The position numbers were made by a program, and so were the translations under genes. Below the pieces are notes generated by a model. It was not told the DNA's origin. It was given only the letters and a program-made list of their open reading frames with translations, and did not search any database. Of a stretch of DNA of 64,000 nucleotides, positions 367 through 23,732 are shown piece by piece. Origin of the DNA: an uncultured Spirochaetales bacterium. Lineage in GTDB: Bacteria; Spirochaetota; GWE2-31-10; CAYYKD01. The stretch is taken from NCBI GenBank assembly GCA_964471825.1, contig CAYYKD010000001.1, positions 65,136-129,135 of the forward strand. The letters run 5' to 3'. Each line of letters begins with the position of its first letter. The stretch's first letter is position 1.

Positions 367-2265
367 TTAACCAAGCCGCATTATCAGCGTCTCGATCATC
401 TTATCCATTTCCGACATTATCTTTGCCGTTGCATTATAACCATGTTGAAACTTCATCATATTTGCAAATTCTTCATCTATATTAACACCTGAGATTGATT
501 TCCTAATATTTTTGAGGTTATGAACTATGGTCTCTGCGTTTTTCAGCCCTTTTTCAGCTACATTTGATCTTGCACCAAGGTCGGAGATGACAGTCTCAAA
601 GTACTGAGAAAAGGTCTGAGACATCCCAACCATTACCTTTTTATCCTTAAGGGAGGCAATTCTCTGAGCTATCTCAGAATCCCCCGATTTATTGTAGACA
701 TCCTTTACTCCATCCCCTGTAGAATCAATCCCCTCAGCAGTTGCAATGTTATTGTGGTCAGCAAGAACCTGTTCATTGACACTCATGTAGGCAGACGGAT
801 GAGTTAACGGAGCTACCGCCCAATTTGACCTCTCAGTAAACTTATCAACCTGATTTATCTGATTATAGTCAAATGCGCCCTCTTCACCTGCCCCCTGTAA
901 AACTGATGCATAGCCTGTAAGAAATAGCCCGTCATCCTGCAGTCTTCTTATAGCAAAGTCCGGTGCACCGTTCTCAACCTGATAGTCAGCCTTAAGTGTC
1001 AATTTGCCATCTGTATTTAGAAATGCGTTAACCCTTGCATCGGACTGATTTATCCTGGTTATAACCTCACTCACTGTATCGGTTTCATAGTAGTCTACTG
1101 TTGAGTCATTTATGATCATCTGACCTCTTATTCCAAGCTTATCATTCAACTCAAGTTTGTTGCTTCCAGACACTCTAAAAAGGAAGGTAGAATCATCCTG
1201 ACCATCCCCGTTTCTGTCATAGTTTCCGGCCGGATCATTTACAAATGGGAACTGAACAAAGAAGTTTACCCCTGTTTTACCATTCGCCCCAAAACCATCT
1301 GAATGAATCTCATTAACAAGATCTGTTACATTTGCCGCAAAGGAGTTTACCTTTTTTATCTCAAAGTTTAGATCAGTGTCCCTTAGATCTACCAGACCTG
1401 CCAACTCACCGCCCCTTAGTACAAGTTTCTCTCCATCACCCCAGAATGCATCAAAATACCCTTCATTCTCTGCCTGGCTCTCAAGCTGAAGTTGTTCATA
1501 CTTGCCGCCCTGCACAAGATGCCGTCCCCCGATAAAGAGGATCAATTCATCAGGGTCCTCTCTGCTTATCTGCACATCGACAAGTTCGGAGAGCCTGTCT
1601 ATAAGCATGTCCCTCTGATCTTTTAGATCATTCGGGTTATCCTTCATCGTTTCAACCTTTAAGATCTTCTCATTTAACAATGCAATATCTTTTGCAATAT
1701 TGTTTACCTCTCTAACCTTATCCTGAAATTCAGTATCAATATTGTCTCTAATATCTTTTAGTTGACTATAGTGGTGCCGTACGCTATTAGTAAGAATATT
1801 TGCCTTCTGAACTACTACAGATCGCATTGATTTTTCATAGGGATTGTTTGCAAGATCACTCCATGATGACATAAACTCATCAAGCCCTGTTCTAAGCGTA
1901 TTTATCCTGGATGGGTCGGTATTCACTCCCGGTTCCTGGTAGACAAGTTCAACCTGCTCCAGATACTTATCGCGAACCTTGTAGTAGCCCTGGTTTTTAT
2001 TTTCAAATATTATTCTATTATCAACCAGCGAATCTCTCACCCGCTCGATTCTTGCGGTTACAACTCCCTGACCAATCTGACCGGTTCTTTCTGCCCTGGT
2101 CATGTCCGGCATATAGATCGGCTCAAATGACTCCATATGGATCATCTGCCTTGTATAGCCTTCATTGTTCATATTATTAAGGTTGTGTCCCGTTATCATC
2201 AATGCCTTTGAGTGTGTTAATAATGACCTCTTGCCCATTTCTATACCATGAAATGTTGATACCAT
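367..2265 (-). CDS. flgK: Flagellar hook-associated protein 1 FlgK
   Basis: 632 aa. N-terminus MVSTFHGIEMGKRSLLTHSKALMITGHNLNNMNNEGYTRQ matches the conserved FlgK/flagellar basal-body rod N-terminal motif (MSSTFSGL...TGHNIAN..T.GYSRQ). Size and position next to flgL fit. Confidence 0.85.
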   Translation of the reverse strand: MVSTFHGIEMGKRSLLTHSKALMITGHNLNNMNNEGYTRQMIHMESFEPIYMPDMTRAERTGQIGQGVVTARIERVRDSLVDNRIIFENKNQGYYKVRDKYLEQVELVYQEPGVNTDPSRINTLRTGLDEFMSSWSDLANNPYEKSMRSVVVQKANILTNSVRHHYSQLKDIRDNIDTEFQDKVREVNNIAKDIALLNEKILKVETMKDNPNDLKDQRDMLIDRLSELVDVQISREDPDELILFIGGRHLVQGGKYEQLQLESQAENEGYFDAFWGDGEKLVLRGGELAGLVDLRDTDLNFEIKKVNSFAANVTDLVNEIHSDGFGANGKTGVNFFVQFPFVNDPAGNYDRNGDGQDDSTFLFRVSGSNKLELNDKLGIRGQMIINDSTVDYYETDTVSEVITRINQSDARVNAFLNTDGKLTLKADYQVENGAPDFAIRRLQDDGLFLTGYASVLQGAGEEGAFDYNQINQVDKFTERSNWAVAPLTHPSAYMSVNEQVLADHNNIATAEGIDSTGDGVKDVYNKSGDSEIAQRIASLKDKKVMVGMSQTFSQYFETVISDLGARSNVAEKGLKNAETIVHNLKNIRKSISGVNIDEEFANMMKFQHGYNATAKIMSEMDKMIETLIMRLG

Positions 2266-5169: not shown

Positions 5170-6660
5170 ATGAACAAATCTATCTTTATCTTCCCTAAGG
5201 TCTCCTCCTTGTTTTTATTATTAATTTTCTTCAGTTCTTGCGGGTTAGGAGATAATCCTAAGAATCAAAATGATTTTAATAAAAAAACTAGTATTTTACC
5301 ATCCGAATACTATGTAAAATTGCCTGCTTCAATTACAAATTCTACAAGATCTTCTTCAAATATGCAAAACTATGTAGCATCAATTACCGGAGTTATTGAT
5401 GATTCTAATAATTTTGATTACTCTATAATCAGATCAGCTATCCAGACCACTGAATGGGATAACATATTGAGAGCTATAGATATTGCTATCATTGATAATA
5501 TTTGTGAAAATTCTGATCTGACAGATGATGTTATAAGTGCCAGTTCTATTATTGTAACTGATTCTATGGTCGAAATAATGAAATCAATTACACCAAACAA
5601 TATATATAATAACATCTATGATGTAGTTAAAGGAAGGGAATATTTTATTTCTGACTTTGTTTATAAAAAATCAGATGATCCGATGTATGATAGAGTCTTT
5701 GAGTATCTTTATTTAAGAGATTATATTCCTGCCGAGCAAGATCCTGAATATACACCTGACTGGGAAAGTACTACTAAGTTATACTGGAAAGATGATAAGA
5801 GCTTATTTAAATCTTCATATTATTTTTTTAATCAAACTCACTTAAAATTATCAACTAATTATATATATGATGGAAACAATAAAAAATCAACATTAAACTA
5901 TCTACAATCAATGTACTCCTCGGCAGAACTACAAGAATCAAAACAGGATTCTCCTTTTGTTGAGTTTGCATCACTTACACTTATGGCAAATCCTAGTTCC
6001 AATAATAATGGAGTATTCTTTCTAACTGAAAGACATAGAGCTATTATGCTTCATAAATATGAATTTTACAGATCAACTTCAACGGGTTATTCGGATGACA
6101 ATGGCGGTATAATAAATAGTGAATGGATTAACTCCTTAGGTGATGACAGCTCAGTTGATATTTTTAAACATGGATTTGACGGTACCGGAAAAGTAAGTTA
6201 TTTTTCAGAACTTGTTAATACAGAGTGGGTACCTGGAATTGGTTATGAGAATATTGATGTAGATGCAGTATTTGATAATTATATAAATAAGTTTGAAGCT
6301 GTACAATCAACCATGACAGATGATTCATTAATTTCAGATAACTTTAAACTAGTAAATAGAGAAAAAGAGCTCTCTTATAATGATGCGAAAATTAACACAA
6401 ACTATTTTGTATCTTCTTCACTGTACACAGAAAGGGAAGTTGACTATTTAAACAAAGAGGTTGGGGATCTATCTATTTTTGAGGTGGGTGCAATATTCAA
6501 AAAATTAATTGGTGCCGGCAGATGTACGACAGAGGGCAAAATATCACTTCTGATTTTTACTCAAAATTTATCTGAGCTTAATGGGACAAGTTGCCATATA
6601 TACAAAAAAAATAGTGATGGTACTATAGAGTATATAGGTACCACTACCTTCTCCATGTAG
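5170..6660 (+). CDS. Hypothetical lipoprotein (496 aa)
   Basis: Signal peptide with lipobox-like FFSSCG (MNKSIFIFPKVSSLFLLLIFFSSCGLG). Asn/Tyr/Asp-rich mature part with no recognisable catalytic motif. Confidence 0.5.
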   Translation: MNKSIFIFPKVSSLFLLLIFFSSCGLGDNPKNQNDFNKKTSILPSEYYVKLPASITNSTRSSSNMQNYVASITGVIDDSNNFDYSIIRSAIQTTEWDNILRAIDIAIIDNICENSDLTDDVISASSIIVTDSMVEIMKSITPNNIYNNIYDVVKGREYFISDFVYKKSDDPMYDRVFEYLYLRDYIPAEQDPEYTPDWESTTKLYWKDDKSLFKSSYYFFNQTHLKLSTNYIYDGNNKKSTLNYLQSMYSSAELQESKQDSPFVEFASLTLMANPSSNNNGVFFLTERHRAIMLHKYEFYRSTSTGYSDDNGGIINSEWINSLGDDSSVDIFKHGFDGTGKVSYFSELVNTEWVPGIGYENIDVDAVFDNYINKFEAVQSTMTDDSLISDNFKLVNREKELSYNDAKINTNYFVSSSLYTEREVDYLNKEVGDLSIFEVGAIFKKLIGAGRCTTEGKISLLIFTQNLSELNGTSCHIYKKNSDGTIEYIGTTTFSM

Positions 6661-6759: not shown

Positions 6760-9666
6760 CTACTTCAATCCTATTGGAAAGGGCATACCAAAGATAAATG
6801 TTTTTGGGTACTGTTCTTCACCTTTATACTGCTTGGTTATCAGAGGGAAATATTCGTAGAGGTAATCATTAAGAGAGTTTACTGTAAGCTCCCCCTTATT
6901 ATTGAAGGCACCACCCTTTAAACCATCAATTATTGTATAGGTAAATGAACCATGACCGAGAGCTGTAAACTCCATTGCAAACTGGTCACTTCCTGTTGAG
7001 GCAAAGATCATAGTTCCGGAGGCCTTAGAGAGTTTTGCCAGTGCATTCTCCTCTGCGGCCCCCTTCATCGCAAACTGATCTGCAAATGCACCTGAATTGC
7101 AGGCATCAACAAACATAAGCTGCTTAGTTGCCCTTATCTCCTTTAGCTCGCCCCTCATCTCTGTACCTGATATAGAATTCCTCTGATTGAATGTAAGATT
7201 TGTTAGTTGTACCGTTCCATGAAGAACATAGAAAAACTCATTACCACCATCAGGCAGCTCCAGGGCTTGACCGTGTCCGGAATAATACAGAATAAAGACA
7301 TCCTCCGGCCGGATTGCCGACTTTACCTTTATGAATTCAGCGAGTACATTGTCCCGTGTCGCTTTTTCATCATAGATCTTCGTAACAAATACATTTCCAA
7401 ACAACTTCTCGGCATATGGAACTAAGGAGGAAACAACCCCTTCAATATCCGCAACACAGTAATTGAGATTATAGGATGAATTTTTATATTTATTTATCCC
7501 GACAGCAATAATATACATATCAGGTTTATTGTTAGTCTTTGGAATGTAACGGTAAGTAACGATATCTTCGACCCCCTCGGTACCCTCTAATGAATAGCCG
7601 ACAACCTTAAGCCGGTTCAGTCCGCTTGATAGCGTAACCTTAAAGCTCCTCTTGTAGGTTAAAATATCCGGTGTATCTACAGTATCTTCTATAATAAGCT
7701 TATCATTTGAAAACACCCTTATTCTTGCTATCCCTCCACCCGAGTTAGTTGCTCTGACCTCAATGTTAACAGAATTTTCGTTAACCGTGTAATCAGCAGT
7801 TTCAACAACTGTATTCTTCAAGCCTCTCGAACTGCCTGAACCTGTAAATAGTGAAACGACGGGCGGTAGTTTAAAGCCTGTGTTGATATCGTTTCTAGCA
7901 ACCTTACCAATATCCTCACTCAATGCTCTGGATACAATGTCAGGCCTATAGAATGTATCAAAGAACTTAGAGGCGGGTAAAAATAACGGCGATTTGCCCG
8001 ATTCCCTATTCAGATGCCATCCTATAAGTTCACTTGTCCCCCTAAAATCATAATACCCTTCGGGTGTCCATAGAATCCATTGTTTCTCATCGGGATGAAC
8101 AAATAGAGCGAGTAATTCCTTTCCATCAGAAACCCTATTCCACCTGATTGTACCGTCATCACAGCAATACACAAATATTCCCGTGTCCCCAACAATGTTA
8201 ACAGCCCATGCGTTTCCCGGTACAGGGATCTTCCATATTACAGTGCCATTATCGCTTAATGCATAGATATACCAATCTGCCCCCAGTATAATTGTTTTAC
8301 CATCACCTGAAACTGATGCGGATCTATTTGTTTCATATTTTTCCAGGAAATTCAGACTTTCTCCGTTTAGTTTAGGTTGATATGAATCAAGCCAATCAGT
8401 TATTTTAATGTTTTTAACAGAATCCCTTGCTGTATCGTAGATTATTTCAGACTGCCTCAACTCTCTTCTGACCAGATCAAACTGCATTTGATTTTTTCCA
8501 AATGGTCTGAAGGAGACAAGACTTCCGGTTTGATCAACTCCAAAATACTGGTATTGATAATTTCTAAAACTAATAATCTCACCTGATCTATAATAAACAA
8601 AGGTATTCTCCTTTGTAACCCTCGCAATGTCCGGGCGACCGCTGGTCGTTAAGAAGGATCCATCGCTTAAGGGTTTAATATCCATAATCAATCCTGTTCC
8701 TGCGGAAATATCCCTATATCGTGCCCGCCCTTGATTATCCCACCTGCGGATTACACTCCACCATATATTTTCTCTCAAGATCAGATGAAATCCGCCTGCA
8801 TACAGATATCTGCCATCCTGTGACCAGTTGACCATTAGAAACCTATTCTTGTCATCGGCACCTTTTGTGTTTGGTTCGTATAATAACTCAAGATCAGTTC
8901 CACTTAGCACCTGTATCTTTGTTGTATCATCGTGCCCTATAGCGATCCGGCTGGCATCCGGAGAAAATGCGATTGAGTAAGGTAGACTTCCGCCTGATGA
9001 TAGGATTTTTTTCTGTTCATTGAAATCGCTGTCGTAGAGTCTTATGTATCCATCATTACACACTGTAGCAAGCCGCCCATCATTTGAGAACGAGGTATTC
9101 TGCACACTCCCATTGTATCCCGGAAGAACCTTTAAAATTTTGCCGGCCCTTATGTCGATAATTACCACACCGGAAGTACCTCCGAGGGCGGCGGCAACAT
9201 AGTTTCCATCGTTTGAGTATTCAAGATCGTTTATAACATTTCCTAAACCCTTAATAACACCTGACAGCTCCCCATCAACTGTATTAAAAACATAGATAGC
9301 ATTATTCTGAGTCTCTCTATAGCTTGTCCAACCCCCTGTAATTATCTTACTGCCGTCAGGAGAGATAGCACATGAATATAACTTGCCCTCATTTCCATCC
9401 TCAATTGGGACTCTGAGAGTACGGATCAAAGCCCCATTTTCTGCAGACCAAAGTTTTACCGTTTTATCATCTGATGATGATACAAAATAGACACCATTTC
9501 GATCAACATCAATTCTTCTAATCATAGAAGTATGCATTTCTGTATTAAGCCTTAGTATCGGCTTGTCCTGAACAGGTATATCTGAGTATATTGGAATGTT
9601 TGAACTCATAAAAGTTATTGAAATCAGAACAGACAACATGGTTGTCAAAGTCTTATATTTATTCAT
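6760..9666 (-). CDS. Secreted WD40-repeat protein with C-terminal caspase-like (peptidase C14) domain
   Basis: 968 aa. N-terminal signal peptide. WD40-type repeats (SSSDDKTVKLWSAENG, CNDGYIRLYD, CCDDGTIRWNRVSDG). C-terminal domain carries the caspase His-Gly and Cys dyad motifs ILYYSGHGQ and MFVDACNSG after MYIIAVGINKY. Confidence 0.75.
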   Translation of the reverse strand: MNKYKTLTTMLSVLISITFMSSNIPIYSDIPVQDKPILRLNTEMHTSMIRRIDVDRNGVYFVSSSDDKTVKLWSAENGALIRTLRVPIEDGNEGKLYSCAISPDGSKIITGGWTSYRETQNNAIYVFNTVDGELSGVIKGLGNVINDLEYSNDGNYVAAALGGTSGVVIIDIRAGKILKVLPGYNGSVQNTSFSNDGRLATVCNDGYIRLYDSDFNEQKKILSSGGSLPYSIAFSPDASRIAIGHDDTTKIQVLSGTDLELLYEPNTKGADDKNRFLMVNWSQDGRYLYAGGFHLILRENIWWSVIRRWDNQGRARYRDISAGTGLIMDIKPLSDGSFLTTSGRPDIARVTKENTFVYYRSGEIISFRNYQYQYFGVDQTGSLVSFRPFGKNQMQFDLVRRELRQSEIIYDTARDSVKNIKITDWLDSYQPKLNGESLNFLEKYETNRSASVSGDGKTIILGADWYIYALSDNGTVIWKIPVPGNAWAVNIVGDTGIFVYCCDDGTIRWNRVSDGKELLALFVHPDEKQWILWTPEGYYDFRGTSELIGWHLNRESGKSPLFLPASKFFDTFYRPDIVSRALSEDIGKVARNDINTGFKLPPVVSLFTGSGSSRGLKNTVVETADYTVNENSVNIEVRATNSGGGIARIRVFSNDKLIIEDTVDTPDILTYKRSFKVTLSSGLNRLKVVGYSLEGTEGVEDIVTYRYIPKTNNKPDMYIIAVGINKYKNSSYNLNYCVADIEGVVSSLVPYAEKLFGNVFVTKIYDEKATRDNVLAEFIKVKSAIRPEDVFILYYSGHGQALELPDGGNEFFYVLHGTVQLTNLTFNQRNSISGTEMRGELKEIRATKQLMFVDACNSGAFADQFAMKGAAEENALAKLSKASGTMIFASTGSDQFAMEFTALGHGSFTYTIIDGLKGGAFNNKGELTVNSLNDYLYEYFPLITKQYKGEEQYPKTFIFGMPFPIGLK

Positions 9667-9769
9667 AAAACCCCCTCACTTTATGATCCACTATAATGGC
9701 TCTCATATACACCTCATTTTAGCATTATCGATTCTAATTTCAAACTATTTCTACTAAGAATATGCTGTT

Positions 9770-11152
9770 TTAAAGTTTTATTTTATAGGAAGTTATTTTT
9801 GAGTCGGATTCTATAGGGACTTGATCAAAACTATCAATCCTTGTAAACCTTACAAATGGCGAATCTGATAGGGTGTAGACATCCTCAGAGGTTGTGTTTG
9901 CCGCATAGTCAGTTAACAGACTGTCAGATGACCAACTCTCTACTGTATTTGAATGTCGGCGGCGATAGAGAAGTTTAGTGTATATTAGTTCAGATGTATC
10001 AAAGTAATTTCCCCGGACTATACATTCATCAGTGATATATCCATTATTTGAATACACCCTATAGTTTTTATAACCAAAATCAATCCCTGCTGTAACGATA
10101 GGATTTTGCGGGAAGTACCTTTTAAAAAATGATATGATAGAACCGCCGACATTACGGGAATAGCCTGAGAATACAGGTGTCTTCATCCCGTGGCTCTCTA
10201 ATTCTGCACAGATCGGATGGTCTGATATTAGTGGTGTTCTTCGCGATGACATTAGCCTGACCCTGGCTGTTATATCAAATAGCACTCGCCCGTTATACCT
10301 AAGACCAAGAAAAGGCAGATTAGAATAGTACTGTGCATCTAATGAAAAAATAAGATCAGGAATAATATTATTTCTAAGGAGAATCTTTGCTGAGGTATCA
10401 GTTGCAGCAATAAAAAGCCGTTCTCTTGATGATGATATCTCGGCGATGTTATCCTCCAGTGAAGGACCGCCACCTGTTACAAGAACTATTTTGTCGTTAC
10501 AGATCTCAATCTTTGATTGATCAAACCGCCCTTTTTTTACATCAATTAGATTTTTTCTAACAGATGCTTCCCAGATTTTATTTAATGATCGAATAGTCTT
10601 ATTATCCATAATTACCGGATTAACTATATGCTTTATCATTTTGATCAGTTCCAGTGTCTTTGCCGGATAGAGCCTCTCTAATACCGGATGAGTAACAATT
10701 CTATATGTTGTAGCACCGATTAGATAGGGGCTTTGAGCCAGGTCATCAATTGTTCCGACAGTTAGAGAAGTCCTACCGTTTAAAGAAGTTTTGTCTAACA
10801 TTTTCATCTGATCACTGTTATTTAAAATCACACTCTTCAACAGAGCCACATCTATCGGCACAACAAATGTCTTCTTACATAGCCTGACCCTATTATGCAG
10901 GTGATAACCCATTCCAAAACCAACCGCAATGATAAGCTCAACTTCACTATAGGGATCAGATTTTGCTATCTCATTAGACACAGAGTATTTTGAGTTAAGG
11001 CAATTATCATCCAGGATAGGCACAGAGTAACCATCCCTGGAAATCTCAAACCTTACTCTATCTAATGTCTTACTGCATAGAAGTTTTTCTTTTAAAGTGT
11101 CCGTGATAAATGAAAAATCACCTAAAAGATTTGTGTCTTTATCTGAGTTCAA
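9770..11152 (-). CDS. DUF115/Maf-like (motility accessory factor / MptE-like) protein, putative flagellin glycosylation-associated glycosyltransferase
   Basis: 460 aa. Contains IVLVTGGGPSLEDNIAEI (GPSL motif) followed by IPDLIFSLDAQ, matching the DUF115 signature blocks (GnGPSL...PDy..s.D). Confidence 0.55.
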   Translation of the reverse strand: MNSDKDTNLLGDFSFITDTLKEKLLCSKTLDRVRFEISRDGYSVPILDDNCLNSKYSVSNEIAKSDPYSEVELIIAVGFGMGYHLHNRVRLCKKTFVVPIDVALLKSVILNNSDQMKMLDKTSLNGRTSLTVGTIDDLAQSPYLIGATTYRIVTHPVLERLYPAKTLELIKMIKHIVNPVIMDNKTIRSLNKIWEASVRKNLIDVKKGRFDQSKIEICNDKIVLVTGGGPSLEDNIAEISSSRERLFIAATDTSAKILLRNNIIPDLIFSLDAQYYSNLPFLGLRYNGRVLFDITARVRLMSSRRTPLISDHPICAELESHGMKTPVFSGYSRNVGGSIISFFKRYFPQNPIVTAGIDFGYKNYRVYSNNGYITDECIVRGNYFDTSELIYTKLLYRRRHSNTVESWSSDSLLTDYAANTTSEDVYTLSDSPFVRFTRIDSFDQVPIESDSKITSYKIKL

Positions 11153-11177: not shown

Positions 11178-11915
11178 TCAATAGATCGAGTCATAAAGAA
11201 AGAGACCATGCGGAGCAATTGTTTCATATGCAAGCTCTCTTGATCGCCCCTCCAGGATATTCTTAATTGCATCAGGTTTCATCATGCCCTTTCCAGCCAT
11301 CATCAAAGTCCCAACAATAATTCTAACCATATTGTATAGAAATCCATCGCCTGACAGAATTATCCTGATTAGATCACCCTCTTTTGTTATCGATATCTCA
11401 TATATTGTTTTAACTGTATTCTTCGTCTTGGACTTCATATTTGTAAAACTTCGATAATCCATTGTTCCAATAAGATATGAAGAGGCCTTCTTCATTGCAT
11501 CTATGTCAAGCGGGGTTTCCTCATGCAGTTCATATTTTCTATTAAATACATCATGAAATGATGAGTTTCTAATATTATAGAGATATTTTTTTTGCTTTAC
11601 ATTGTATCGAGCGTGAAATTTATCATCGACACTCTCCACAGAGTGAACCAGTATATCAAGAGGCAGGTATTTGTAGCAATAAGATAGTATTTGATCAGGG
11701 TTGATTTGTTTGGTTGTCTTAAAGTTTGCTATCTGATTTAGTGCATGAACACCTGCATCTGTTCTGCCCGAACCGATTAGACTGATCTCTTCCTCGGTTA
11801 GTAGTGACAAAACCTTCTCAATCTTTGCCTGTATTGTATTATCAGTATCTCCAAGCCTCTGCCAGCCATTATATCTGGATCCGTCATAACTTATCTTCAT
11901 CTTATAATTAAACAT
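11178..11915 (-). CDS. truA: tRNA pseudouridine(38-40) synthase TruA
   Basis: 245 aa. KISYDGSRYNGWQRL and GSGRTDAGVHALNQ (catalytic Asp motif) are typical of TruA. Confidence 0.85.
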   Translation of the reverse strand: MFNYKMKISYDGSRYNGWQRLGDTDNTIQAKIEKVLSLLTEEEISLIGSGRTDAGVHALNQIANFKTTKQINPDQILSYCYKYLPLDILVHSVESVDDKFHARYNVKQKKYLYNIRNSSFHDVFNRKYELHEETPLDIDAMKKASSYLIGTMDYRSFTNMKSKTKNTVKTIYEISITKEGDLIRIILSGDGFLYNMVRIIVGTLMMAGKGMMKPDAIKNILEGRSRELAYETIAPHGLFLYDSIY

Positions 11916-12041: not shown

Positions 12042-14180
12042 TTAATTTTCTATCATTGTAATATTTGAATTGCTGTCTATATATATCAAATTTTTCACGC
12101 CTTTCGATTTAATCATTTGTAAGACATCATCGATCGATTCTTTAATGTTCTCATCTTTGTCTTTTAACTGATAAAAATCGTAACCGTATCCCAGATATGG
12201 CTTTTCATTTTTATATGGCAATCCATCAATCAAAGCAATACCTGTTAATGCAGGGATTAAAAAAGGGATCGATTTTGCTTCGAGAAGACTCCAGTACGGA
12301 TTATTTCTTTCAATGTAGATGTAAAGATTTGATTTTTGCTTTAGATTGAATGCATCGGTATAATTTTTGATAGTCATCAATAAACTATAGCTTGGTAAAT
12401 TCAACATGCCGTCTCTCTTAACTGACATTGCTTTTATTAACAAAGGTAAACTTTTTTGTTGCAGAGATTTTTTTATTGAATCCTTAAGTGATATAACACC
12501 TACTTTTTCAATTATGCTTTGTTTTAAATTAGAAGAAGTATGATTTAGTGCAAAAATCTCGTTATTTATGTTATATATTGAAAAAAACAATGCTAATGCC
12601 AACAAAAAAAGATAGATTTGAGAAAATCTTAAACTGCTTCGAGATATTACCATGGTGTTTTTGTCAACCTGAAATTTTATCAGGCTCTCAAGTTTAAATG
12701 ACATTGCAATCAATAACGAAAGCGAGAACCATATTTGAAAATCAGAAAAATATCCGGCACTACCCCCACCAATTTTTAATACCAGGCCAGGTAACAATCC
12801 AACAGAAACAAAGATTAATAAGATCTCACAATCAAGAAATGATTTTTTTAACACCACTTCCTTTAATGAAACCATTGTAGTTTTTTTTCTGATATACAAA
12901 TAGAGAATTGATCCAAAGCAGTACATAAGCAAGAAAATAACCGGATTAACAGAGGTGTATCTGCGGATAAAACTGAATAATTCAAAGACTTTTTCATCAG
13001 CTAAAATCCACAACTTATATGTAAAATACGCAGTTAACAAATTAATTAATAGTGCGACTATATTAATAAAATCTGTATACATCTTAAGACGAATGAAAAC
13101 CCATAAAATTACAGGTATCATAATAATCAGAAGTGATATCTTAGATATTCCAATACAAAAAAGCAGGATAGGAAAAACAATTAGAATTGATATATAATAG
13201 AATAGGTTCTTTTTCCTTAGAATAATATTATCATATATAACTACTGAAATACTTAGAAATAGAAATGTTAATATTAATGAAATAAGATATGACTCGCTTC
13301 GTAAAATTGAGTCCCATCGGAGTGCAGATTTATTGAGTATTAATTTTGGCAATATCCCGGCAAAACCGGCAATTAATAACATAAGCATGACAACTATGTT
13401 CCTTTTTTTATCAGAATAAAATCGGTCAATTATATTAAATGTAAAAATAAAAAAAGACTTAATAAATAGTGGAATAAATAGTATTGGATAAACTACATTA
13501 TAAAAGAACAAGGCATCACAGTTAATTATATTAGATATCATTGCAAAGAGATAGTGACTTCCAATGTGATATTGGAGTGGAACAACTCCATCTAGACCTG
13601 TACTCGGTATTCCATATGTTTTAATCATATTCATTATTGAAGAATGAAAAACTGTATCAATATGAAATTTTCCGAGTGCAATCTTTTCAAGATACAATAT
13701 ATTATGATAATTACCACCCCATATTACAGCTGCCATAAACACACCAAATAAAGTCATGATTAACGAAACAATCACGGTATAGAAGATGTTTCCATTTGAC
13801 ATATAGTAAAAAAGATAAACAATAATTGGTATGAACGAAATTACAGCGAAGATAGTTAGTATTATGTTTAAGATGGGGTTGTTTATATAACCCGCTACAA
13901 ATAACAGTAAAATAAATATAAATGTAAACAGCCCGGCTTTATTTATATGACTATGCTTTCTTAATATTACTATAGAAAACTCAATGACATTTATTGCAAA
14001 CAACGAAAGTACAATAGAAACAAGCACCTGTCTAAAATTATCAATATATCCGATTTTCAATTTCAAATAAATAAAAACGAGAATACAGGCAATTAAACTC
14101 GGAAATAAATTTGTCAGAAGTAACCTTTTTTTAAAACTGTCTGGTGAATTATGTTCTAAATTATTCATCTTTAACCTCAT
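12042..14180 (-). CDS. Large polytopic membrane protein (712 aa, more than 12 predicted TM helices, C-terminal ~200-aa soluble domain), function unknown
   Basis: Very hydrophobic Ile/Leu/Phe-rich sequence. No transporter signature recognised. Heads a same-strand run: membrane protein, truA, Maf-like, WD40-caspase. Confidence 0.5.
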   Translation of the reverse strand: MRLKMNNLEHNSPDSFKKRLLLTNLFPSLIACILVFIYLKLKIGYIDNFRQVLVSIVLSLFAINVIEFSIVILRKHSHINKAGLFTFIFILLLFVAGYINNPILNIILTIFAVISFIPIIVYLFYYMSNGNIFYTVIVSLIMTLFGVFMAAVIWGGNYHNILYLEKIALGKFHIDTVFHSSIMNMIKTYGIPSTGLDGVVPLQYHIGSHYLFAMISNIINCDALFFYNVVYPILFIPLFIKSFFIFTFNIIDRFYSDKKRNIVVMLMLLIAGFAGILPKLILNKSALRWDSILRSESYLISLILTFLFLSISVVIYDNIILRKKNLFYYISILIVFPILLFCIGISKISLLIIMIPVILWVFIRLKMYTDFINIVALLINLLTAYFTYKLWILADEKVFELFSFIRRYTSVNPVIFLLMYCFGSILYLYIRKKTTMVSLKEVVLKKSFLDCEILLIFVSVGLLPGLVLKIGGGSAGYFSDFQIWFSLSLLIAMSFKLESLIKFQVDKNTMVISRSSLRFSQIYLFLLALALFFSIYNINNEIFALNHTSSNLKQSIIEKVGVISLKDSIKKSLQQKSLPLLIKAMSVKRDGMLNLPSYSLLMTIKNYTDAFNLKQKSNLYIYIERNNPYWSLLEAKSIPFLIPALTGIALIDGLPYKNEKPYLGYGYDFYQLKDKDENIKESIDDVLQMIKSKGVKNLIYIDSNSNITMIEN

Positions 14181-14538: not shown

Positions 14539-16245
14539 ATGCAAAAATTAGTTGATAGAATATTTGGCGTTAAGATAAACAAAACTAGGGTTCGACCATT
14601 AGTGGTCAAGATATTACTTCTGTTTATAGTATTTATTCTTGCATCAAATTTTGCATCCAACTATATAAACTTGATATTTAACCGTGCGGAGATGGTAAAC
14701 AGACTTAAAGAATCATTAATTAAAGATCTAAAAACAATTTATAACTATGCTAATTCGCAATTTGAGATATTTCAGTTTAATAATGACATTAAGGCGGCTA
14801 TGGCCAATATCGAGTCTAGATCTAAACTTGATTTTACCTTGCAAAAATCTGTCCTACTTGCAGTTAAAGAAAATGGTGAGTACCTTGCTCAAAGCTATAA
14901 TTATGATAAGGAGATCTACTTTACAGATAAAGCTGCTCTAGAGCAGATGATTAGCAGTAGAGAAGCCTCTATAAATGAAGATTTTATATATTTTAGATAC
15001 GGTAAGAGTAAGTATTACGGCGTATATAAGTACAACCCCAACTGGAACTCCTACATTATCCGAGGTGAAGAGGTAAATGAGTTCTATAAAAGATCTAACG
15101 ACATATTTCTTATTGTCTCTCTGATAATTCTTATTATGACGATTGCCTCATCCATAGTAGGTGCAATGCTGATAAGCTTTATTTTAAGGTTTATTCATAC
15201 CATTACTAAACAGATTATGGATATGCTAGACAATCAAAAGCTTGGAATCATAGATCTTCAGGGTGCAACTAATGATGATGTAACATTCCTTGGTGTTGCA
15301 TTTAATTCACTTTCCAGTACAATAAGCAATCTGATGAACATATTCCTCAAATTTGTTAATAAGGATATTGCAAATAAGGCATATAAGGATAAAGAGATTA
15401 GACTTGAAGGCTCTAAAAAAGATCTTACAGTACTCTTTTCAGATATCAGAAGTTTTACATTTATGACTGAAACTCTTGGTATTGACATTATTAAGCTGCT
15501 GAATCTTCACTATGAAAGTGCAATTCACTATATCAGCCTTCATGAGGGACTTGTCGGTTCAATAATAGGTGATGCACTTCTCGCTGTCTACGGAGCCCTC
15601 GATGAGATTAGTGAGAACAAATCCTACCAGGCATTAAAATCTGCCTACGATATACAGATGGTTACAGGAAACCTCAGAACCTCCATGAAAAAGATCAGGG
15701 AGGAACTGGAAAAAAAGTTCGGTGCATTGAGTGAAGAAGAAGAGAGAGTATTTAGAGCTGTACTAATTGAAGTAGGAGTCGGAATTGACGGCGGAGATGT
15801 ATTTTACGGTACAATAGGCTCAAGCAGTAGGATGACTAATACCGTAATCGGCGATAATGTTAACAGTGCCTCAAGACTTGAGGGGCTTACCAGGGTATAC
15901 AATGTACCTGTTATCTGTTCAGAATACATTAAAGACGATATTGAGAAAAATGTTAAAAACCATGGCATTAGATTTGTTGAGTTGGATACAGTTCTGGTAA
16001 AGGGAAAAACAATAGGCAGAAAAGTATTCTGGCCTATACAGGAAAAAGATTTAAATGACGGATCTAGAGAGGCAATTAATAACTTCTCTGTAGGCCTAAA
16101 AATGTATTATGCCGGCGAATGGGAGAAAAGTGTTGAATGGTTTAACAACTGCAATCTTCCTATGGCAGACGAATTTCTGGATAGAACAAAAAATTATAAA
16201 AAACCAACCGGATGGAACGGAATATGGACAATGACAACCAAGTAG
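14539..16245 (+). CDS. Membrane-anchored class III adenylate/guanylate cyclase (two TM helices flanking a periplasmic sensor region, linker, cyclase domain)
   Basis: 568 aa. Cyclase homology domain motifs LTVLFSDIRSFTFMTE, IGDALLAVYG, VGIDGGDVFYGTIGS and TVIGDNVNSASRLEGL. Confidence 0.8.
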   Translation: MQKLVDRIFGVKINKTRVRPLVVKILLLFIVFILASNFASNYINLIFNRAEMVNRLKESLIKDLKTIYNYANSQFEIFQFNNDIKAAMANIESRSKLDFTLQKSVLLAVKENGEYLAQSYNYDKEIYFTDKAALEQMISSREASINEDFIYFRYGKSKYYGVYKYNPNWNSYIIRGEEVNEFYKRSNDIFLIVSLIILIMTIASSIVGAMLISFILRFIHTITKQIMDMLDNQKLGIIDLQGATNDDVTFLGVAFNSLSSTISNLMNIFLKFVNKDIANKAYKDKEIRLEGSKKDLTVLFSDIRSFTFMTETLGIDIIKLLNLHYESAIHYISLHEGLVGSIIGDALLAVYGALDEISENKSYQALKSAYDIQMVTGNLRTSMKKIREELEKKFGALSEEEERVFRAVLIEVGVGIDGGDVFYGTIGSSSRMTNTVIGDNVNSASRLEGLTRVYNVPVICSEYIKDDIEKNVKNHGIRFVELDTVLVKGKTIGRKVFWPIQEKDLNDGSREAINNFSVGLKMYYAGEWEKSVEWFNNCNLPMADEFLDRTKNYKKPTGWNGIWTMTTK

Positions 16246-17753
16246 TTAAGCGGGACAATCCTACAAAACTTTTTCTAAAAGATACAGAGAATTTTATATC
16301 TGATTCTAAAGATCTCTACAACCTTGATACAGAGTTTGAAAAAACCAAAAAGAATAGAAATCTTAGGTACAAGATAATATTTACAACATTTGTATTGTTA
16401 CTTATCGGCATAAGTTATTTTGTTGCCTACATTGTTGAGAAGCAAAATAGAAACTTAAAAGTTTCAATAGAAGAGTTTAATGATGTAAATCTCCGCGAAA
16501 TTCTTGCAGATGCCAAAAAAAACGAAAGTGAGAAAAGCATTCTTGAGAATCAACTGAAAAATCTGCAGTATGAAATGGATAGAACAATCGATTCTCTTAA
16601 AATTCAGACTCTAAGAGAGATCGAGTCAGTACAGTTTGACTCATCAACAGATTCTATGGAACAGAAAATATCTTTTATTAGAAATAAAGAATTTGCTCTG
16701 ATTGAAAAAATCAAAAAAGAATATGAAGAAAAAATTAACGATAAAAAATTAGAAATAGAGTCTCTCGATAAAGAACTTGCCAACATTGACCAAAATAAAC
16801 TGAATAAAGCTCGTGAAACAGAGATGGTAATCAACAGTCAACAAAAGATCACTGATATGAGGCTTGATGCACAGAGAAAAACCTATGAGACTCAGATATC
16901 AGAAATAAAACAGGGTAATGTTGTCGCTTTAAGAAATACTAAAAACTATTATGAGAGACGAATTAATCTAATAAACCGGGCTCATAAAAAGGAAATTGAT
17001 GAATTAATACTAAAATTCAATCCTATCTTTCAGAATAACCTGATACAAAAGATAGCAGACACAACTGCAGATTTTGCACAGACTGATATTGATCTATTTT
17101 TCTTTGATGATAATGAGTTAAAGATCAACCTCCTGCAAGCAGACAAAGAGGGGATTCTGTCATCTTCAGATTACGAGGAAATTACACTTAGATCAACTAA
17201 ATCAAGAATGCTATCTGAGTATATCGCTGCTATCCCATTTGTCAACTCCGTACCCTTGGTACTTAAACACATTGATTTAAACACGCGTAGAGTTAGACTA
17301 TACTATGAACGATGGATAAAATCATTACTTGAAAACACACTTGAGAAGTCTAAAACAATTGAGGCAAATCTTAGCACTATAGAAAAACTTAATAGTCAAT
17401 TAGAGAATCTTGAGTCACAGAAGAGTGCAATACTTCAAGCAATTGAAGCACAATCTAAAGAAGCATTTGTGCCACCTCAAGCAGATGAAAATCTTGTAGG
17501 TTACATATTAGATAGCAAAGATATATTTAATATTAGTTTTGTATTTATTGATGACTATATACCAGGAAACTTAAAGACCTGTACGATTTATCGAAACTCT
17601 AAGGAAAAAATCGGTACTGCAGTGTTTGTTAAAAAAGGAAATAAGTTTGTATTACAACAGGGGATTCTCACAAATATTAGAAAACCTATTAGTCCATTTG
17701 ATAAAATTGTTGTGTTAAAATCCGAGCCGTCAACAAATCAGCCATTGGAGTAA
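16212..17753 (+). CDS. Membrane-anchored coiled-coil protein (513 aa), unknown function
   Basis: Overlaps the cyclase gene by 34 nt (co-transcription). Single TM segment YKIIFTTFVLLLIGISYFVAYIV, then about 300 aa of heptad-rich Glu/Lys/Leu sequence. Confidence 0.5.
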   Translation: MERNMDNDNQVVKRDNPTKLFLKDTENFISDSKDLYNLDTEFEKTKKNRNLRYKIIFTTFVLLLIGISYFVAYIVEKQNRNLKVSIEEFNDVNLREILADAKKNESEKSILENQLKNLQYEMDRTIDSLKIQTLREIESVQFDSSTDSMEQKISFIRNKEFALIEKIKKEYEEKINDKKLEIESLDKELANIDQNKLNKARETEMVINSQQKITDMRLDAQRKTYETQISEIKQGNVVALRNTKNYYERRINLINRAHKKEIDELILKFNPIFQNNLIQKIADTTADFAQTDIDLFFFDDNELKINLLQADKEGILSSSDYEEITLRSTKSRMLSEYIAAIPFVNSVPLVLKHIDLNTRRVRLYYERWIKSLLENTLEKSKTIEANLSTIEKLNSQLENLESQKSAILQAIEAQSKEAFVPPQADENLVGYILDSKDIFNISFVFIDDYIPGNLKTCTIYRNSKEKIGTAVFVKKGNKFVLQQGILTNIRKPISPFDKIVVLKSEPSTNQPLE

Positions 17754-17846
17754 AATTACACTTTTTTTTTATTATTTCTTTACTTTACTTGACTCATGAT
17801 TTTTTATCTGATATATTAAATTTTAATATGATATTTAGGGGGTTTT

Positions 17847-18788
17847 ATGATAAATTTTAGACATCTAAGGGTTTTACTGGTTCTGTTAGTGTTAATCGGG
17901 TTGAATAATGTTGTGTTTTCAGAAGAGGGGCAGACAGAGGAAAGCAAATTTGCACCCTACCTGACTCTAACAAATGAAGCGGAAGTATCTACAGCAGTTG
18001 AAGGTCAATCACTTACATTTGGTTCATTTACAAACATTGTTAATCTAGATATGGGAGTATATATTACTCTTACGGATATGATTGGTATATATCCGTATAT
18101 CGGAGTTTCTGACTTTGCAGTCTCTATGGGAAGTAACGGAATATTAGCTGATATCTACGGTATGATATATGCCGGTATCGGAACAACAATTACACCTATT
18201 GATATGCTCTCTATTAATATCGGACTTGTTAATACAGAGTTCGTAGGAATTGATAAGGTTGTATATGCAGGTTTTAGTCTCTATACAGGCATAACACTTG
18301 AAGTAGAGGCGGCTTTTATATCACTTGATATAGCTAACTATCTAAATCCACTTTTTAATAATACAACCGTGCTTCTATGGGACACCATAACCTATGAATT
18401 AACTTTCAATTTTCTAAACTTCATTAATCCTAAAATAAATACCGGTCTTTTTGTACAGGGAGAGCTATTTACAAGTAATGATTTTGCTAATGGAAGTTTT
18501 ACAGGTTTTAGTTACTCAAACGAATTATTTGCAGGTATAATAACAAATCCAATAGAGTCGTTTAAACTATATGTTTTGTTTGCAATGTACAACTATGGAG
18601 CATTTGATGATGGATATAAAGCTATCGATGGAAGATCAGATGCATTAGGTATGAAGATAGGCATGAGTTTTACACATAATTGGTTTAATGCAGAGATTAA
18701 CTACATACCTAAATTTGGAGTCTACACAGATGGCGTGATCGGTGGAACTGAGCATTGTTTTCAGGTAAATATAGGTATTACATTATAG
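17847..18788 (+). CDS. Secreted hypothetical protein (313 aa), Gly/Thr/Tyr/Phe-rich beta-type sequence
   Basis: N-terminal signal peptide MINFRHLRVLLVLLVLIGLNNVVFSEE. GGGG RBS. Confidence 0.5.
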   Translation: MINFRHLRVLLVLLVLIGLNNVVFSEEGQTEESKFAPYLTLTNEAEVSTAVEGQSLTFGSFTNIVNLDMGVYITLTDMIGIYPYIGVSDFAVSMGSNGILADIYGMIYAGIGTTITPIDMLSINIGLVNTEFVGIDKVVYAGFSLYTGITLEVEAAFISLDIANYLNPLFNNTTVLLWDTITYELTFNFLNFINPKINTGLFVQGELFTSNDFANGSFTGFSYSNELFAGIITNPIESFKLYVLFAMYNYGAFDDGYKAIDGRSDALGMKIGMSFTHNWFNAEINYIPKFGVYTDGVIGGTEHCFQVNIGITL

Positions 18789-18810
18789 CCATTAATTTCT
18801 AGGATATCTT

Positions 18811-21465: not shown

Positions 21466-21480
21466 ACAAAGGATAATTAT

Positions 21481-21921
21481 ATGCAGGATATAGAAAAAAT
21501 TTTAATATTGAAAACCGTATCAATTTTTTCGGAAGTTCCCGAGATCTATCTTGGAGAAATCGCCGGTTTAATTGAGGAAGTTGAGCTGGAGGATGGCGAT
21601 CAAATTATCACAAAAGGTGAAATTGGTACAGAGATGTTTATAATTGTATCAGGTGCTGTAATAATCTATGATGGATCAACAGAGCTTGCTGTATTAAATG
21701 AGAGGGCTGTCTTTGGTGAACTTGCCGCTCTATCGCCTGAGCCTAGAATTGCATCAGCAAGAGCCTCAGGTGATACACTTCTATTTAAAATATGCGGCGA
21801 TGATCTATTTGAGTTAATAACAGACAATACAGATATGGTAAGAGGGCTTGTGAAATACTTAATCAATGAGATGCGCAGAGTCTACAACATTATAAACCTG
21901 GCAGCTATTGAAAATAAATAA
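21481..21921 (+). CDS. Stand-alone cyclic-nucleotide-binding (CAP/Crp-type cNMP-binding) domain protein
   Basis: 146 aa. GDQIITKGEIGTEMFIIVSGAV and FGELAALSPEPRIASARA match the cNMP-binding beta-barrel and phosphate-binding cassette (FGELAL...R.A.A). No DNA-binding HTH. Confidence 0.75.
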   Translation: MQDIEKILILKTVSIFSEVPEIYLGEIAGLIEEVELEDGDQIITKGEIGTEMFIIVSGAVIIYDGSTELAVLNERAVFGELAALSPEPRIASARASGDTLLFKICGDDLFELITDNTDMVRGLVKYLINEMRRVYNIINLAAIENK

Positions 21922-22016
21922 AACTATAAAAAAAGGTGAGGCTATCATTGATTTAATCGTTTTTTTAAGATTAAAAAATTGATAAATCAATAATTATTCG
22001 CCTCACACATATCATC

Positions 22017-23732
22017 TTATTTGACTAACATTATATCCCATTTATAACTAATCGCTAAATAGATGCCTGCGTCATTCTTAAATATGCCTATTTTATCTTT
22101 CTCGTTTTGAATTATTGAATCAATGTAATCATTGTTTTCACTTCCATCATTTACTATCTGTTTCATGTACTGATCTACCTGTTTGTACTTAACCCATGAG
22201 AAAAACAGATTTGCACCAACTACGATTTTTAAGGACTCAAAAGGCTCAACAGCGAACTCTGTGTTTAAATACAGGCTTCCATATCGCTCCTCGTGACTAT
22301 AATCATAGAGAAGAGGTATTGTATAGACCGCACTAAATGATGGTTTCAATTTTACAGGTCCTGCATAGAATGGAAACTCGGCAAATATTGCCAAACCCTG
22401 CTCAAAACCGGCCTGATAAAGCCCCATCTGATCAGTGATCGCTCTGTAATAGTATTTTTCCATGTAGGATTTGTCATGGGTCTTAGAATTTTCCGGCAAA
22501 CCGTCCTTGTAGTCGCTATAAAAACCTGTGTCAAAACCCGGGATAAATTCCCCAAGATACTGAATATTAAAGTAGAAATCCCTGTCAGGACCAAATCTAT
22601 AATCAAAACCGGTTACAAATGAAAGTTTGTGATTTCTAATCTTGTATGAACTTAGATCATAGTCCTCAGTCATCATATATGAACCCTCAAGCCAAAATCC
22701 AAAGTCATCAATCACTGTTTTAAAATCAGCATTTATTCTATGAACTCGCTTTCTTTCAAGTGTCATCTTCTCGATTCGATAAAGGGCATAAGGTCCCGCG
22801 AGAGGAATGTTAAATAGGTCTCTGGCCATAGTTATAGTCGGTGTATAGTACTGATCAAAATCATAGATATACCCAAACGAAAACTCTGTCTTTGGAACTC
22901 TGAAATTTAGTTTAGCACCAATAACAGGTCTTGACAGATCAAATTTGTAGTTTTTTTCATCTATATTTTTAGCATGGATCACTGTCCCGGGTATATCAAA
23001 TGGATCTGATGTACTGTCATTTGACATTCCATAGAACAAGGCCTGTGGCACATTGTCTTTAAAATCAACAGGAAATGCACTTTCCTGATAGAATGGCACA
23101 TAGACAACCTCAACTTTAAATTGATCAACCGGCTCAAATGAAGTAACGAGACTTAAAACTGACATTTTATCTGCATCAACTCCGGTAGAAAAGTCGCGTG
23201 GATTAAGCATGTCGGATGGGTTTATCTTATCAGCTGTTCCCCACTGATGGTAGATGTAACCTGCCTTGATATTAAACTTCCATAGATTAAAACCTATATA
23301 GTTTTCAAGTGGAACAACTTCTATGTTATCCGTACTAAATCCCTTGCTATCCAATTTTATTGCAATATTCCAATTAGACACTAGATATATCAGACTTATA
23401 TTACTCTTTATAAATTCATAGCTAAGTCCAATCTCATTATCGAAGTCAATTCTTCTGATATTTCCTTCAAGTACCTGATGATCGGGTATAACAGGAATAT
23501 AGAAGTTAAATGATGACTCTCCAAACAGCTTAAACTCGTGCTTCATGTCTGTACTGTTATTGCTTGTTTTAGAATTTTTTGCATCGTCATTATTCGAACC
23601 ATTCAAGCCTGTGTCACCTGAACTACCTGTTTTTCCAAAGAGGTCGCTGTAATCATCGGCTGCAACAAAACCTGTTGAAACCATCACAAAAATTGTTAAC
23701 AATAGGCTAAAAAATATATTAGTATTTTTCAT
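22017..23732 (-). CDS. Secreted DUF1302-like outer-membrane-associated protein, partner of the MMPL transporter cassette
   Basis: 571 aa. Signal peptide. Aromatic-rich beta-type sequence. Position downstream of the LolA-like and MMPL genes mirrors the HAE3-RND / DUF1329 / DUF1302 arrangement. Confidence 0.4.
   Translation of the reverse strand: MKNTNIFFSLLLTIFVMVSTGFVAADDYSDLFGKTGSSGDTGLNGSNNDDAKNSKTSNNSTDMKHEFKLFGESSFNFYIPVIPDHQVLEGNIRRIDFDNEIGLSYEFIKSNISLIYLVSNWNIAIKLDSKGFSTDNIEVVPLENYIGFNLWKFNIKAGYIYHQWGTADKINPSDMLNPRDFSTGVDADKMSVLSLVTSFEPVDQFKVEVVYVPFYQESAFPVDFKDNVPQALFYGMSNDSTSDPFDIPGTVIHAKNIDEKNYKFDLSRPVIGAKLNFRVPKTEFSFGYIYDFDQYYTPTITMARDLFNIPLAGPYALYRIEKMTLERKRVHRINADFKTVIDDFGFWLEGSYMMTEDYDLSSYKIRNHKLSFVTGFDYRFGPDRDFYFNIQYLGEFIPGFDTGFYSDYKDGLPENSKTHDKSYMEKYYYRAITDQMGLYQAGFEQGLAIFAEFPFYAGPVKLKPSFSAVYTIPLLYDYSHEERYGSLYLNTEFAVEPFESLKIVVGANLFFSWVKYKQVDQYMKQIVNDGSENNDYIDSIIQNEKDKIGIFKNDAGIYLAISYKWDIMLVK

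Follow-up and report, generated by a model that had tools for sequence, protein, structure and literature searches.

The DNA analysed here (the window) is a stretch of 64,000 nucleotides (nts) from a contig of an uncultured Spirochaetales bacterium, and the gene under study lies on its minus strand. It encodes a 968-amino-acid (aa) protein with a predicted export signal, in which two β-propellers and an Ig-like domain precede a C-terminal peptidase domain of family C14. The gene is a single open reading frame (ORF) running from an ATG at 9666 to a stop codon at 6760, and its product is 100% identical to a database protein (P0001). An initial annotation, made from the sequence alone, had described an exported WD40 protein with a C-terminal C14 domain at 6760-9666, and such an ORF is present there. 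Its full-length homologues number in the hundreds, so that the gene is real. The ATG is preceded by a Shine-Dalgarno sequence, and the 103-bp gap between the protease gene and the upstream gene contains a sigma-70-like promoter candidate, a consensus match that is in itself no proof of function (Table 1).

Behind the predicted signal peptide (residues 1-28), the protein is laid out as a WD40 propeller (36-300), a second propeller (301-565), an Ig-like domain (601-710) and a Peptidase_C14 domain (711-968). In Pfam, the WD40 repeats (PF00400) reach 78.1 bits over residues ~40-300, above the cutoff of 27, and Peptidase_C14 (PF00656) reaches 52.2 bits over residues 721-936, above the gathering threshold of 21.4. 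The order of these Pfam domains bears out the initial description of the repeats as N-terminal and of the protease as C-terminal. The first propeller opens with a conserved motif, PILRLNTEMHT, and matches the PDB entry 2YMU both by sequence (E=1.3e-48) and by fold (E=8.7e-29). The second propeller gives no Pfam match even at E≤10 and holds the signature of the family (GTIRW..SDG...W[VI]LWTPxGYYD, residues 505-543). The Ig-like domain, which is the least conserved globular part of the protease, has a weak Big_7 match of 19 bits, under the cutoff of 24.1; the same model exceeds its cutoff in the homologues P0013 and P0096. The second propeller, the Ig-like domain and the acidic S1 pocket described below were missed by the initial annotation.

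A full-length AlphaFold2 (AF2) model built on 60 homologues has a mean predicted local distance difference test score (pLDDT) of 88.7 and a predicted template modelling score (pTM) of 0.76. It contains ~46 β-strands over residues 36-565, with pLDDT above 90 in the first propeller, further β-strands at residues 603-707 in the Ig-like region and an α/β domain at residues 711-968. Compared with the PDB, the whole model is closest to proteins with tandem double propellers, namely 2YMU, Apaf-1 (3SFZ/3SHF), Aip1 (1NR0) and Pwp2. In a model of the C14 domain (residues 705-968), pLDDT and pTM are 90.4 and 0.89, respectively. With this model, Foldseek returned GSU0716 (3BIJ, E=4e-13), Arabidopsis metacaspases 9 and 4, MALT1, legumain, Yca1, TbMCA2 and caspases 3 and 9, all with a probability of 1.0, and the template modelling scores to 3BIJ, metacaspases, MALT1, legumain and caspases range from 0.55 to 0.67. 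At the sequence level, the domain resembles solved structures only weakly (E 1e-9 to 1e-5). By its model, the C-terminal domain is predicted to adopt the caspase-hemoglobinase α/β fold.

Conservation of the active site was counted in an alignment of 60 diverse members of the family. Both motifs quoted in the initial annotation, ILYYSGHGQ (His798) and FVDACNSG (Cys856), are found in the protein, and the His-Cys dyad that it had called intact proved to be near-invariant together with its flanking residues: His798 is kept in 59 of the 60 sequences, while Gly797, Gly799 and Cys856 are present in all of them. The His798 motif aligns with the SGHG of TbMCA2 and Yca1, and Cys856 with the catalytic Cys213 of TbMCA2, where mutant chains show Ala or Gly, and both residues fall on the catalytic positions of MCA2 and Yca1. 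The fold runs on for ~110 residues past Cys856, and Gln895 to Glu899 align with the 'QTSAD' stretch of MCA2, which we take to belong to its p10-like region; a p10-like region may be present in the protease as well.

Three aspartates of the domain, Asp740, Asp789 and Asp854, are invariant (60/60 each). A profile alignment to TbMCA2 places Asp740 on the Asp of 'CCND' and the D854-A-C856 stretch on D211-C-C213. In TbMC2, Asp95 and Asp211 accommodate basic P1 residues, and C14B enzymes cut after basic residues (PMC6426788). Because Asp740 and Asp854 fall on these pocket residues of MCA2, cleavage after Arg or Lys is predicted, and the acidic S1 pocket that characterizes the C14B subfamily is found in the alignment. 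The sequence is thereby that of a protease predicted to be active, specific for Arg/Lys and of the metacaspase/orthocaspase type, rather than that of a pseudo-protease. Twelve residues after Cys856 lies an [RK]-G pair, of which the first position is basic in 56 of the 60 sequences and the second is Gly in 47. It belongs to the only low-confidence loop of the C14 domain in the AF2 model (residues 868-882, pLDDT below 50). Together with the precedent of the orthocaspase MaOC1, whose activity requires autoprocessing (PMC5756287), this suggests by analogy that Lys868-Gly869 is a candidate autoprocessing site.

The signal peptide was judged by heuristics (charge, Kyte-Doolittle hydropathy, the (-3,-1) rule and the lipobox) and by conservation within the family. 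In the N-terminus of the query (MNKYKTLTTMLSVLISITFMSSNIPIYS), the n-region (MNKYK) has a charge of +2 and is followed by a 12-aa hydrophobic core (h-region, residues ~9-20) with a Kyte-Doolittle value of 2.03. The sole site that agrees with the (-3,-1) rule is IYS/DIP, between residues 28 and 29, and neither a lipobox nor a second transmembrane (TM)-like segment was detected in the query by the heuristic scan. The AF2 model has a helix at residues 2-21, followed by low pLDDT and disorder at residues 21-28. By these heuristics, the N-terminus has the basic n-region, the h-region, the (-3,-1) site and the lack of a lipobox that are expected of a Sec substrate cleaved by signal peptidase I.

The same features recur throughout the family. 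A hydrophobic core of at least 2.0 precedes the PILRLNTEMHT anchor in 95% of 105 homologues, as compared with 0.4% of length-matched internal segments, and a (-3,-1) site, often a canonical AxA, lies at most 12 residues from the anchor in 102 of the 105. The n-region is net-positive in 103 of 107 homologues, and a lipobox occurs in just 3 of 120. While these physico-chemical features are conserved, the primary sequence of the segment is not, which is expected for signal peptides. Furthermore, the labelled hosts of the family all belong to diderm phyla, and one variant of the protein carries a PDZ insertion; PDZ domains are common in periplasmic proteases. Taken together, the family-wide signal features, the diderm hosts and the PDZ variant make export to the periplasm a well-supported prediction. 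The N-terminal signal peptide proposed in the initial annotation is upheld at this level, with Sec-like features in the query and in ~95% of the members.

More than 100 full-length homologues were retrieved, of ~950-985 aa and 33-51% identity. A search for the signature W[VI][LM][WY]T[PA]xGY[YF] combined with tblastn identified 542 loci in a set of species-representative genomes that does not include the genome of the window, and these 542 genomes span at least 12 diderm phyla. The hosts include Bacteroidota, Spirochaetota, Desulfobacterota, Nitrospirota, Acidobacteriota (including Holophaga foetida DSM 6591), Ignavibacteriota, Chlorobiaceae, Alpha-, Beta- and Gammaproteobacteria, Omnitrophota, Deferribacterales, Armatimonadota and Verrucomicrobiota. 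A profile of the second propeller collects 1,838 clusters at 50% identity (E≤1e-30), most of them ~950-985 aa long with the propeller-2 module at residues ~295-610. The initial annotation had considered the architecture unusual. Its domain order and location are atypical with respect to published reviews, but the size of the family contradicts any rarity, and the exported double-propeller C14 architecture is neither rare nor specific to spirochaetes. The nearest labelled homologue of the protease comes from a Spirochaetes metagenome-assembled genome (MAG; L006, 56% identity over a partial match). Every named relative of the FlhA encoded in the window (34576..36696) is likewise from a Spirochaetota MAG, the nearest at 78% identity. 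The host is therefore a deep, uncultured spirochaete, in line with the initial attribution to a spirochaete.

Within the family, the first propeller is the most conserved domain. The majority fraction is 0.58 for propeller 1, 0.54 for propeller 2 and 0.52 for the caspase domain, and the identity to the query is 0.44, 0.39 and 0.32, respectively. The most conserved stretch is found in propeller 2 (residues 505-543, GTIRW..SDG..L....W.LWTP.GYYD) and not in the protease. This higher conservation of the propellers speaks in favour of a conserved ligand or partner, and not of a sensor engaged in an arms race. Tandem paralogues are present at ~8 of 82 loci (e.g., L012, L019, L059, L066 and L067), and all of them keep the dyad. 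Longer variants gain propellers, TPR/Sel1 repeats, PDZ or a second C14: a PDZ domain is inserted at residues 503-570 of P0013, two C14 stretches are found in P0294 and P0344, and N-terminal Sel1 or TPR repeats in P0347 and P0354. Three members (P0025, P0243 and P0314) consist of propellers without C14. No effector enzyme other than C14 was found in the seven long scaffold variants that were scanned, suggesting that the scaffold is dedicated to the caspase.

Table 1. Features of the protease gene and of its neighbours, in coordinates of the window
Feature	Position	Strand	Basis or remark
Gene for the predicted exported double-propeller/Ig-like/C14 peptidase, complete, 968 codons + stop	6760..9666	(-)	ORF and translation
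Shine-Dalgarno GAGGGGG	9671..9677	(-)	4 nt upstream of ATG; read from sequence
Sigma-70-like promoter candidate, TTGAAA-16 nt-TAAAAT, extended-10 TG	9716..9743	(-)	Consensus scan, 10/12 matches
Predicted Sec-type signal peptide, residues 1-28	9583..9666	(-)	Heuristics, family statistics
First β-propeller, canonical WD40 repeats, residues 36-300	8767..9561	(-)	Pfam, PDB match, AF2
Second, family-specific β-propeller, residues 301-565	7972..8766	(-)	AF2 all-β, pLDDT ~90-97
Short helical linker, residues 566-600, conserved FYRPD motif	7867..7971	(-)	AF2 secondary structure, conservation
Ig-like β-sandwich, residues 601-710, Big_7-like	7537..7866	(-)	Weak Big_7 match, AF2
Peptidase C14, predicted caspase-hemoglobinase fold, residues 711-968	6763..7536	(-)	Pfam and model
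Asp740 codon, predicted S1-pocket acidic residue (TbMCA2 Asp95)	7447..7449	(-)	Profile alignment
Catalytic His798 codon, SGHG motif	7273..7275	(-)	Alignment
Asp854 codon, predicted S1-pocket acidic residue (TbMCA2 Asp211)	7105..7107	(-)	Profile alignment
Catalytic Cys856 codon, D-A-C-N-S-G motif	7099..7101	(-)	Alignment
Lys868-Gly869, conserved [RK]-G, candidate autoprocessing site	7060..7065	(-)	Alignment, low pLDDT
496-aa ORF, lipoprotein-like N-terminus (LLLIFFSSC)	5170..6660	(+)	No Pfam or NCBIfam family
MptE-like/DUF115 gene of the 'motility accessory factor' type	9770..11152	(-)	PF01973; weak PseD-like match
TruA	11178..11915	(-)	MptE-like gene directly downstream
712-aa ORF, the large membrane protein of the initial annotation	12042..14180	(-)	No Pfam or NCBIfam family

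To compare the gene neighbourhoods, ORFs from 90 aa upwards lying up to 8 kb on either side of the protease gene were clustered for 82 loci. None of the four neighbours compared (the MptE-like gene, TruA, the membrane protein and the lipoprotein) has a homologue within this distance at the 81 other loci, spirochaete loci included. At the locus of the closest homologue (51% identity), the neighbours are wholly different, and the 496-aa and 712-aa neighbours in the window are unrelated to the 499-aa and 974-aa neighbours found there. The run with a Maf-like gene and a large membrane protein gene, to which the initial annotation had drawn attention, does exist in the window, but a check of related genomes failed to recover any part of it; the hypothesis of a functional gene run was consequently rejected and the run carries no functional weight. 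The 'Maf-like' label itself stands only in one sense, as the gene is MptE-like (PF01973), of the motility-accessory-factor kind, and not a Maf nucleotide pyrophosphatase. Given the presence of FlgK (367..2265) and FlhA in the window, the MptE-like gene may belong to flagellin glycosylation and not with the protease gene.

The only enriched neighbour of the family is a DUF4384 protein, found at 16 of the 82 loci and directly adjacent to the protease gene in ~10. Examples are L008, L013, L017, L018 and L021 in Saprospiraceae, and L055, L064, L067, L069 and L073 in Gallionellaceae, Sideroxydans and Holophaga. It occurs either as signal peptide-LPP20-DUF4384 or with a cytoplasmic part as EAD11-TM-DUF4384. 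Both topologies place DUF4384 outside the cytoplasm, making it a possible partner or substrate of the protease, and the second form offers a possible link across the membrane. No DUF4384 was found among the six-frame ORFs of the window with a hidden Markov model built from the 16 DUF4384 neighbours. PADLOC returned just its generic 'caspase' model (39 bits) for the protease and nothing for its neighbours, Pfam detected no NTPase domain (NACHT/NB-ARC) in the protease and Rfam detected no RNA family in the 64-kb window.

Elsewhere in the window, a second ORF of 968 aa (49438..52344, plus strand) was considered as a paralogue and rejected, as its product is a TPR-repeat protein that is unrelated to the protease and matches YfiO/BamD weakly. 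What appears to be a decayed Wadjet defence locus lies at 55055..58727 on the minus strand. It comprises JetA (57414..58727, PADLOC JetA1, 468 bits) and one 756-aa ORF (55055..57325), of which residues 1-483 correspond to no more than a central part of JetC (model positions 232-718 of 1123) and residues 503-755 to the C-terminal part of JetD; JetB was not found in the 89-bp gap of this remnant. The region 14539..31143 holds genes for signalling and transport. A protein with an adenylate/guanylate cyclase domain is encoded at 14539..16245, a transporter with an MMPL/sterol-sensing domain at 24577..26949 and a hybrid histidine kinase of 1,154 aa at 27679..31143, the latter containing dCache, GAF, PAS, HisKA, HATPase and receiver domains; several large ORFs nearby (16212..23732) have no Pfam match. 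Nothing in the window adds functional context to the protease.

We consider it probable, though well short of certain, that the protein is a stand-alone, Sec-exported C14B endopeptidase of the periplasm, in which the double propeller and the Ig-like spacer would serve to recruit, or to gate, a conserved partner or substrate of the envelope, and which probably undergoes autoprocessing at the [RK]-G pair. The features from which this reading starts, i.e., a signal peptide that looks cleavable, the two stacked propellers and the other domains, the dyad and the pocket residues, are seen in the sequence or in predicted structure; its further steps, including the P1 specificity, the docking role, the autoprocessing and the regulatory role, are what we infer. 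The protein would be exported through Sec, and hence be periplasmic, with removal of the signal peptide at ~28/29. The two propellers would serve as a docking platform, or as a gate, through which the conserved partner or substrate reaches the protease. The enzyme would be made as a zymogen, activated by autocleavage in the [RK]868-G869 loop past the catalytic Cys, and would then cleave after Arg or Lys. The outcome would be limited, regulatory proteolysis in the periplasm rather than bulk degradation, so that the processing role suggested in the initial annotation is plausible. The gene would be transcribed from its own promoter, with no functional tie to the Maf-like, TruA or membrane-protein genes.

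Several points weigh against this reading. The export call is a prediction from heuristics and family conservation, and the docking platform and the autoprocessing site are proposed by analogy. A catalytic Cys needs protection in the oxidising periplasm, although other periplasmic and extracellular Cys enzymes exist. In addition, at L059 (4958..14234 of a Burkholderiales MAG), where three copies stand in tandem, the caspase domains are 79-93% identical and the propellers 57-61%, and this faster divergence of the propellers is easier to reconcile with diversifying recognition than with one conserved partner; the tandem copies of L019 show the opposite trend. The N-terminus of the query also leaves room for an uncleaved signal anchor, which would turn the protein into an ectoprotease tethered to the inner membrane and facing the periplasm. 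This variant is possible, yet we regard it as doubtful. The h-region is only moderately hydrophobic, the c-region is long, with the sole (-3,-1) site 8 residues past the core, and AF2 draws residues 2-21 as one continuous helix; however, most homologues have canonical AxA-type sites near the core (VAIAQ, FAQ, NAQ), and an h-region of ~12 residues is short for a membrane span.

The divergence of the propellers at L059 is also one of the arguments for a different function, in which the protein would be a periplasmic danger sensor and executioner: the double propeller would sense a ligand that stems from an invader or from damage (phage, toxin, envelope breach) and would switch on the caspase domain of the same chain, which would cut envelope proteins and lead to growth arrest or death, in the manner of a conflict or abortive-infection device. 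In structural comparison, Apaf-1 ranks near the top for the propeller pair, the family is patchy across phyla with its tandem paralogues, and CHAT/TPR proteins are encoded near the protease gene at 5 loci. The nearest NCBIfam model is NF047832 (caspase_w_EACC1), an EACC1-associated caspase of conflict systems, and the adjacent gene in Saprospiraceae encodes the EAD11-TM-DUF4384 form, in which EAD11 is the Pfam 'Effector-associated domain 11'; effector-associated domains come from conflict systems. We nevertheless judge this function unlikely, though worth keeping in view. Across the family, the propellers show the highest conservation and are not hypervariable, the NCBIfam score of 65.1 bits is far under the cutoff of 140, so that the protein is not a member of that model, and the caspase is never replaced by another effector domain in the variants scanned. 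The window itself provides no NTPase, conserved partner gene or defence-island context beyond the generic PADLOC match. A bolder version, somewhat harder to believe, pictures a periplasmic 'mini-apoptosome', in which an NTPase-free double propeller would detect a conserved danger ligand and execute envelope proteolysis, and which in some lineages would be wired to cytoplasmic Death-like-domain conflict systems via EAD11-TM-DUF4384. Export and the hosts, which are mostly environmental heterotrophs of sludge, sediment and groundwater, would also suit a nutritional protease, secreted or exposed on the surface, for breaking down extracellular proteins. This is improbable, as there is no outer-membrane secretion signal and no lipobox, the Bacteroidota members have no T9SS C-terminal domain because their C-terminus is the catalytic domain itself, and peptide-uptake genes are not conserved nearby. 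Moreover, limited proteolysis is what is typically seen with caspase-fold enzymes that combine a narrow P1 specificity with large, conserved domains for recognition.

The co-directional TruA, MptE-like and caspase genes, the presence of FlgK and FlhA in the window and the periplasmic position of spirochaete flagella could suggest a unit formed with the upstream Maf-like gene and the membrane protein, acting on periplasmic flagella. The absence of these neighbours from the 81 other loci, including the spirochaete loci and that of the 51% homologue, largely refutes it, and the 103-bp gap and the promoter-like site upstream of the protease gene also speak against it; most hosts of the family, e.g., Bacteroidota, are not known for periplasmic flagella, and we give the idea very little credence. 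Finally, dyad-substituted pseudo-orthocaspases are common in bacteria (PMC6426788, PMC3501461), so that the protein could have been a catalytically dead scaffold, or else a cytoplasmic orthocaspase with a misread N-terminus. Both are barely credible here, the dyad and the two S1 aspartates being invariant or nearly so in the 60 members and in all tandem paralogues, and signal-peptide features being found in ~95% of the members, with a strong ribosome binding site before Met1 in the window.

If confirmed, a periplasmic processing enzyme of this type would move part of bacterial caspase biology to the periplasm and would define a new class of envelope proteases with a probably conserved partner. 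Bacterial caspase homologues are generally treated as cytoplasmic and tied to programmed cell death, stress and conflict systems, and the consistent extracytoplasmic location and reversed domain order of the family are noteworthy for this field. Culturable hosts are Holophaga foetida DSM 6591, Lewinella cohaerens and Thermodesulfovibrio sp. TK110.

Among known systems, the closest comparison is with the orthocaspases and metacaspases of C14B (MaOC1, GSU0716 (3BIJ), TbMCA2 and Yca1), with which the window protein shares the predicted caspase-hemoglobinase fold, the SGHG and DxC[HNQ]SG motifs and the two S1 aspartates. The characterised enzymes are cytoplasmic, whereas the window protein is predicted to be exported. 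Orthocaspases are defined as prokaryotic enzymes with a p20 only and no p10, and their accessory domains are commonly C-terminal to the p20 (PMC5756287). In contrast, the accessory domains of the window protein are N-terminal, they include no NACHT or other NTPase and they comprise a family-specific second propeller and an Ig-like spacer. Among the partner domains of prokaryotic caspase homologues, WD40 is the most frequent, and signal peptides may account for many of the 'TM helices' at the N-terminus of prokaryotic metacaspases (PMC3501461). The cyanobacterial YS pseudo-orthocaspases, with a TAT-like N-terminal extension, offer a precedent for caspase homologues whose exit from the cytoplasm has been proposed (PMC6426788). 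These are single-domain proteins with a TAT-like RR and are predicted to be inactive (Tyr/Ser for His/Cys), unlike the window protein with its intact dyad, Sec-type signal and several domains.

An Ig-like domain also adjoins the caspase domain in MALT1, one of the best fold matches, and an N-terminal Big_7 has been reported for 15 archaeal orthocaspases (PMC6426788). The order is different in MALT1, where the Ig domain comes after the caspase domain, while it precedes it in the window protein, and both the Big_7-orthocaspases and MALT1 lack the propellers and the signal peptide. The association of a tandem WD40 double propeller with a caspase-fold protease is reminiscent of Apaf-1 and the apoptosome, whose double-propeller sensor controls caspase-9 (3SFZ, 3SHF and 3J2T are in the top 10 matches), a likeness of fold only at 14-15% identity. 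The window protein has no NB-ARC/STAND ATPase or CARD, and its protease is present in cis instead of being recruited in trans; the periplasm, in which it is predicted to reside, lacks ATP. The gating of a catalytic domain by an N-terminal propeller or PDZ is known from prolyl oligopeptidase/DPP-IV (S9), Tricorn, Tsp/Prc and DegP, many of which are periplasmic. Their catalytic folds and mechanisms are unrelated to that of the window protein, with Ser hydrolases on one side and a Cys-His caspase fold on the other, and no homology is implied. No published description of a family combining signal peptide, double propeller, Ig and C14 was found in a literature of which coverage was incomplete, and database labels of the members read only 'caspase family protein' or 'WD40 repeat protein'. 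The window protein is an ordinary member of this widespread, uncharacterised family, which belongs to a known kind of protease.

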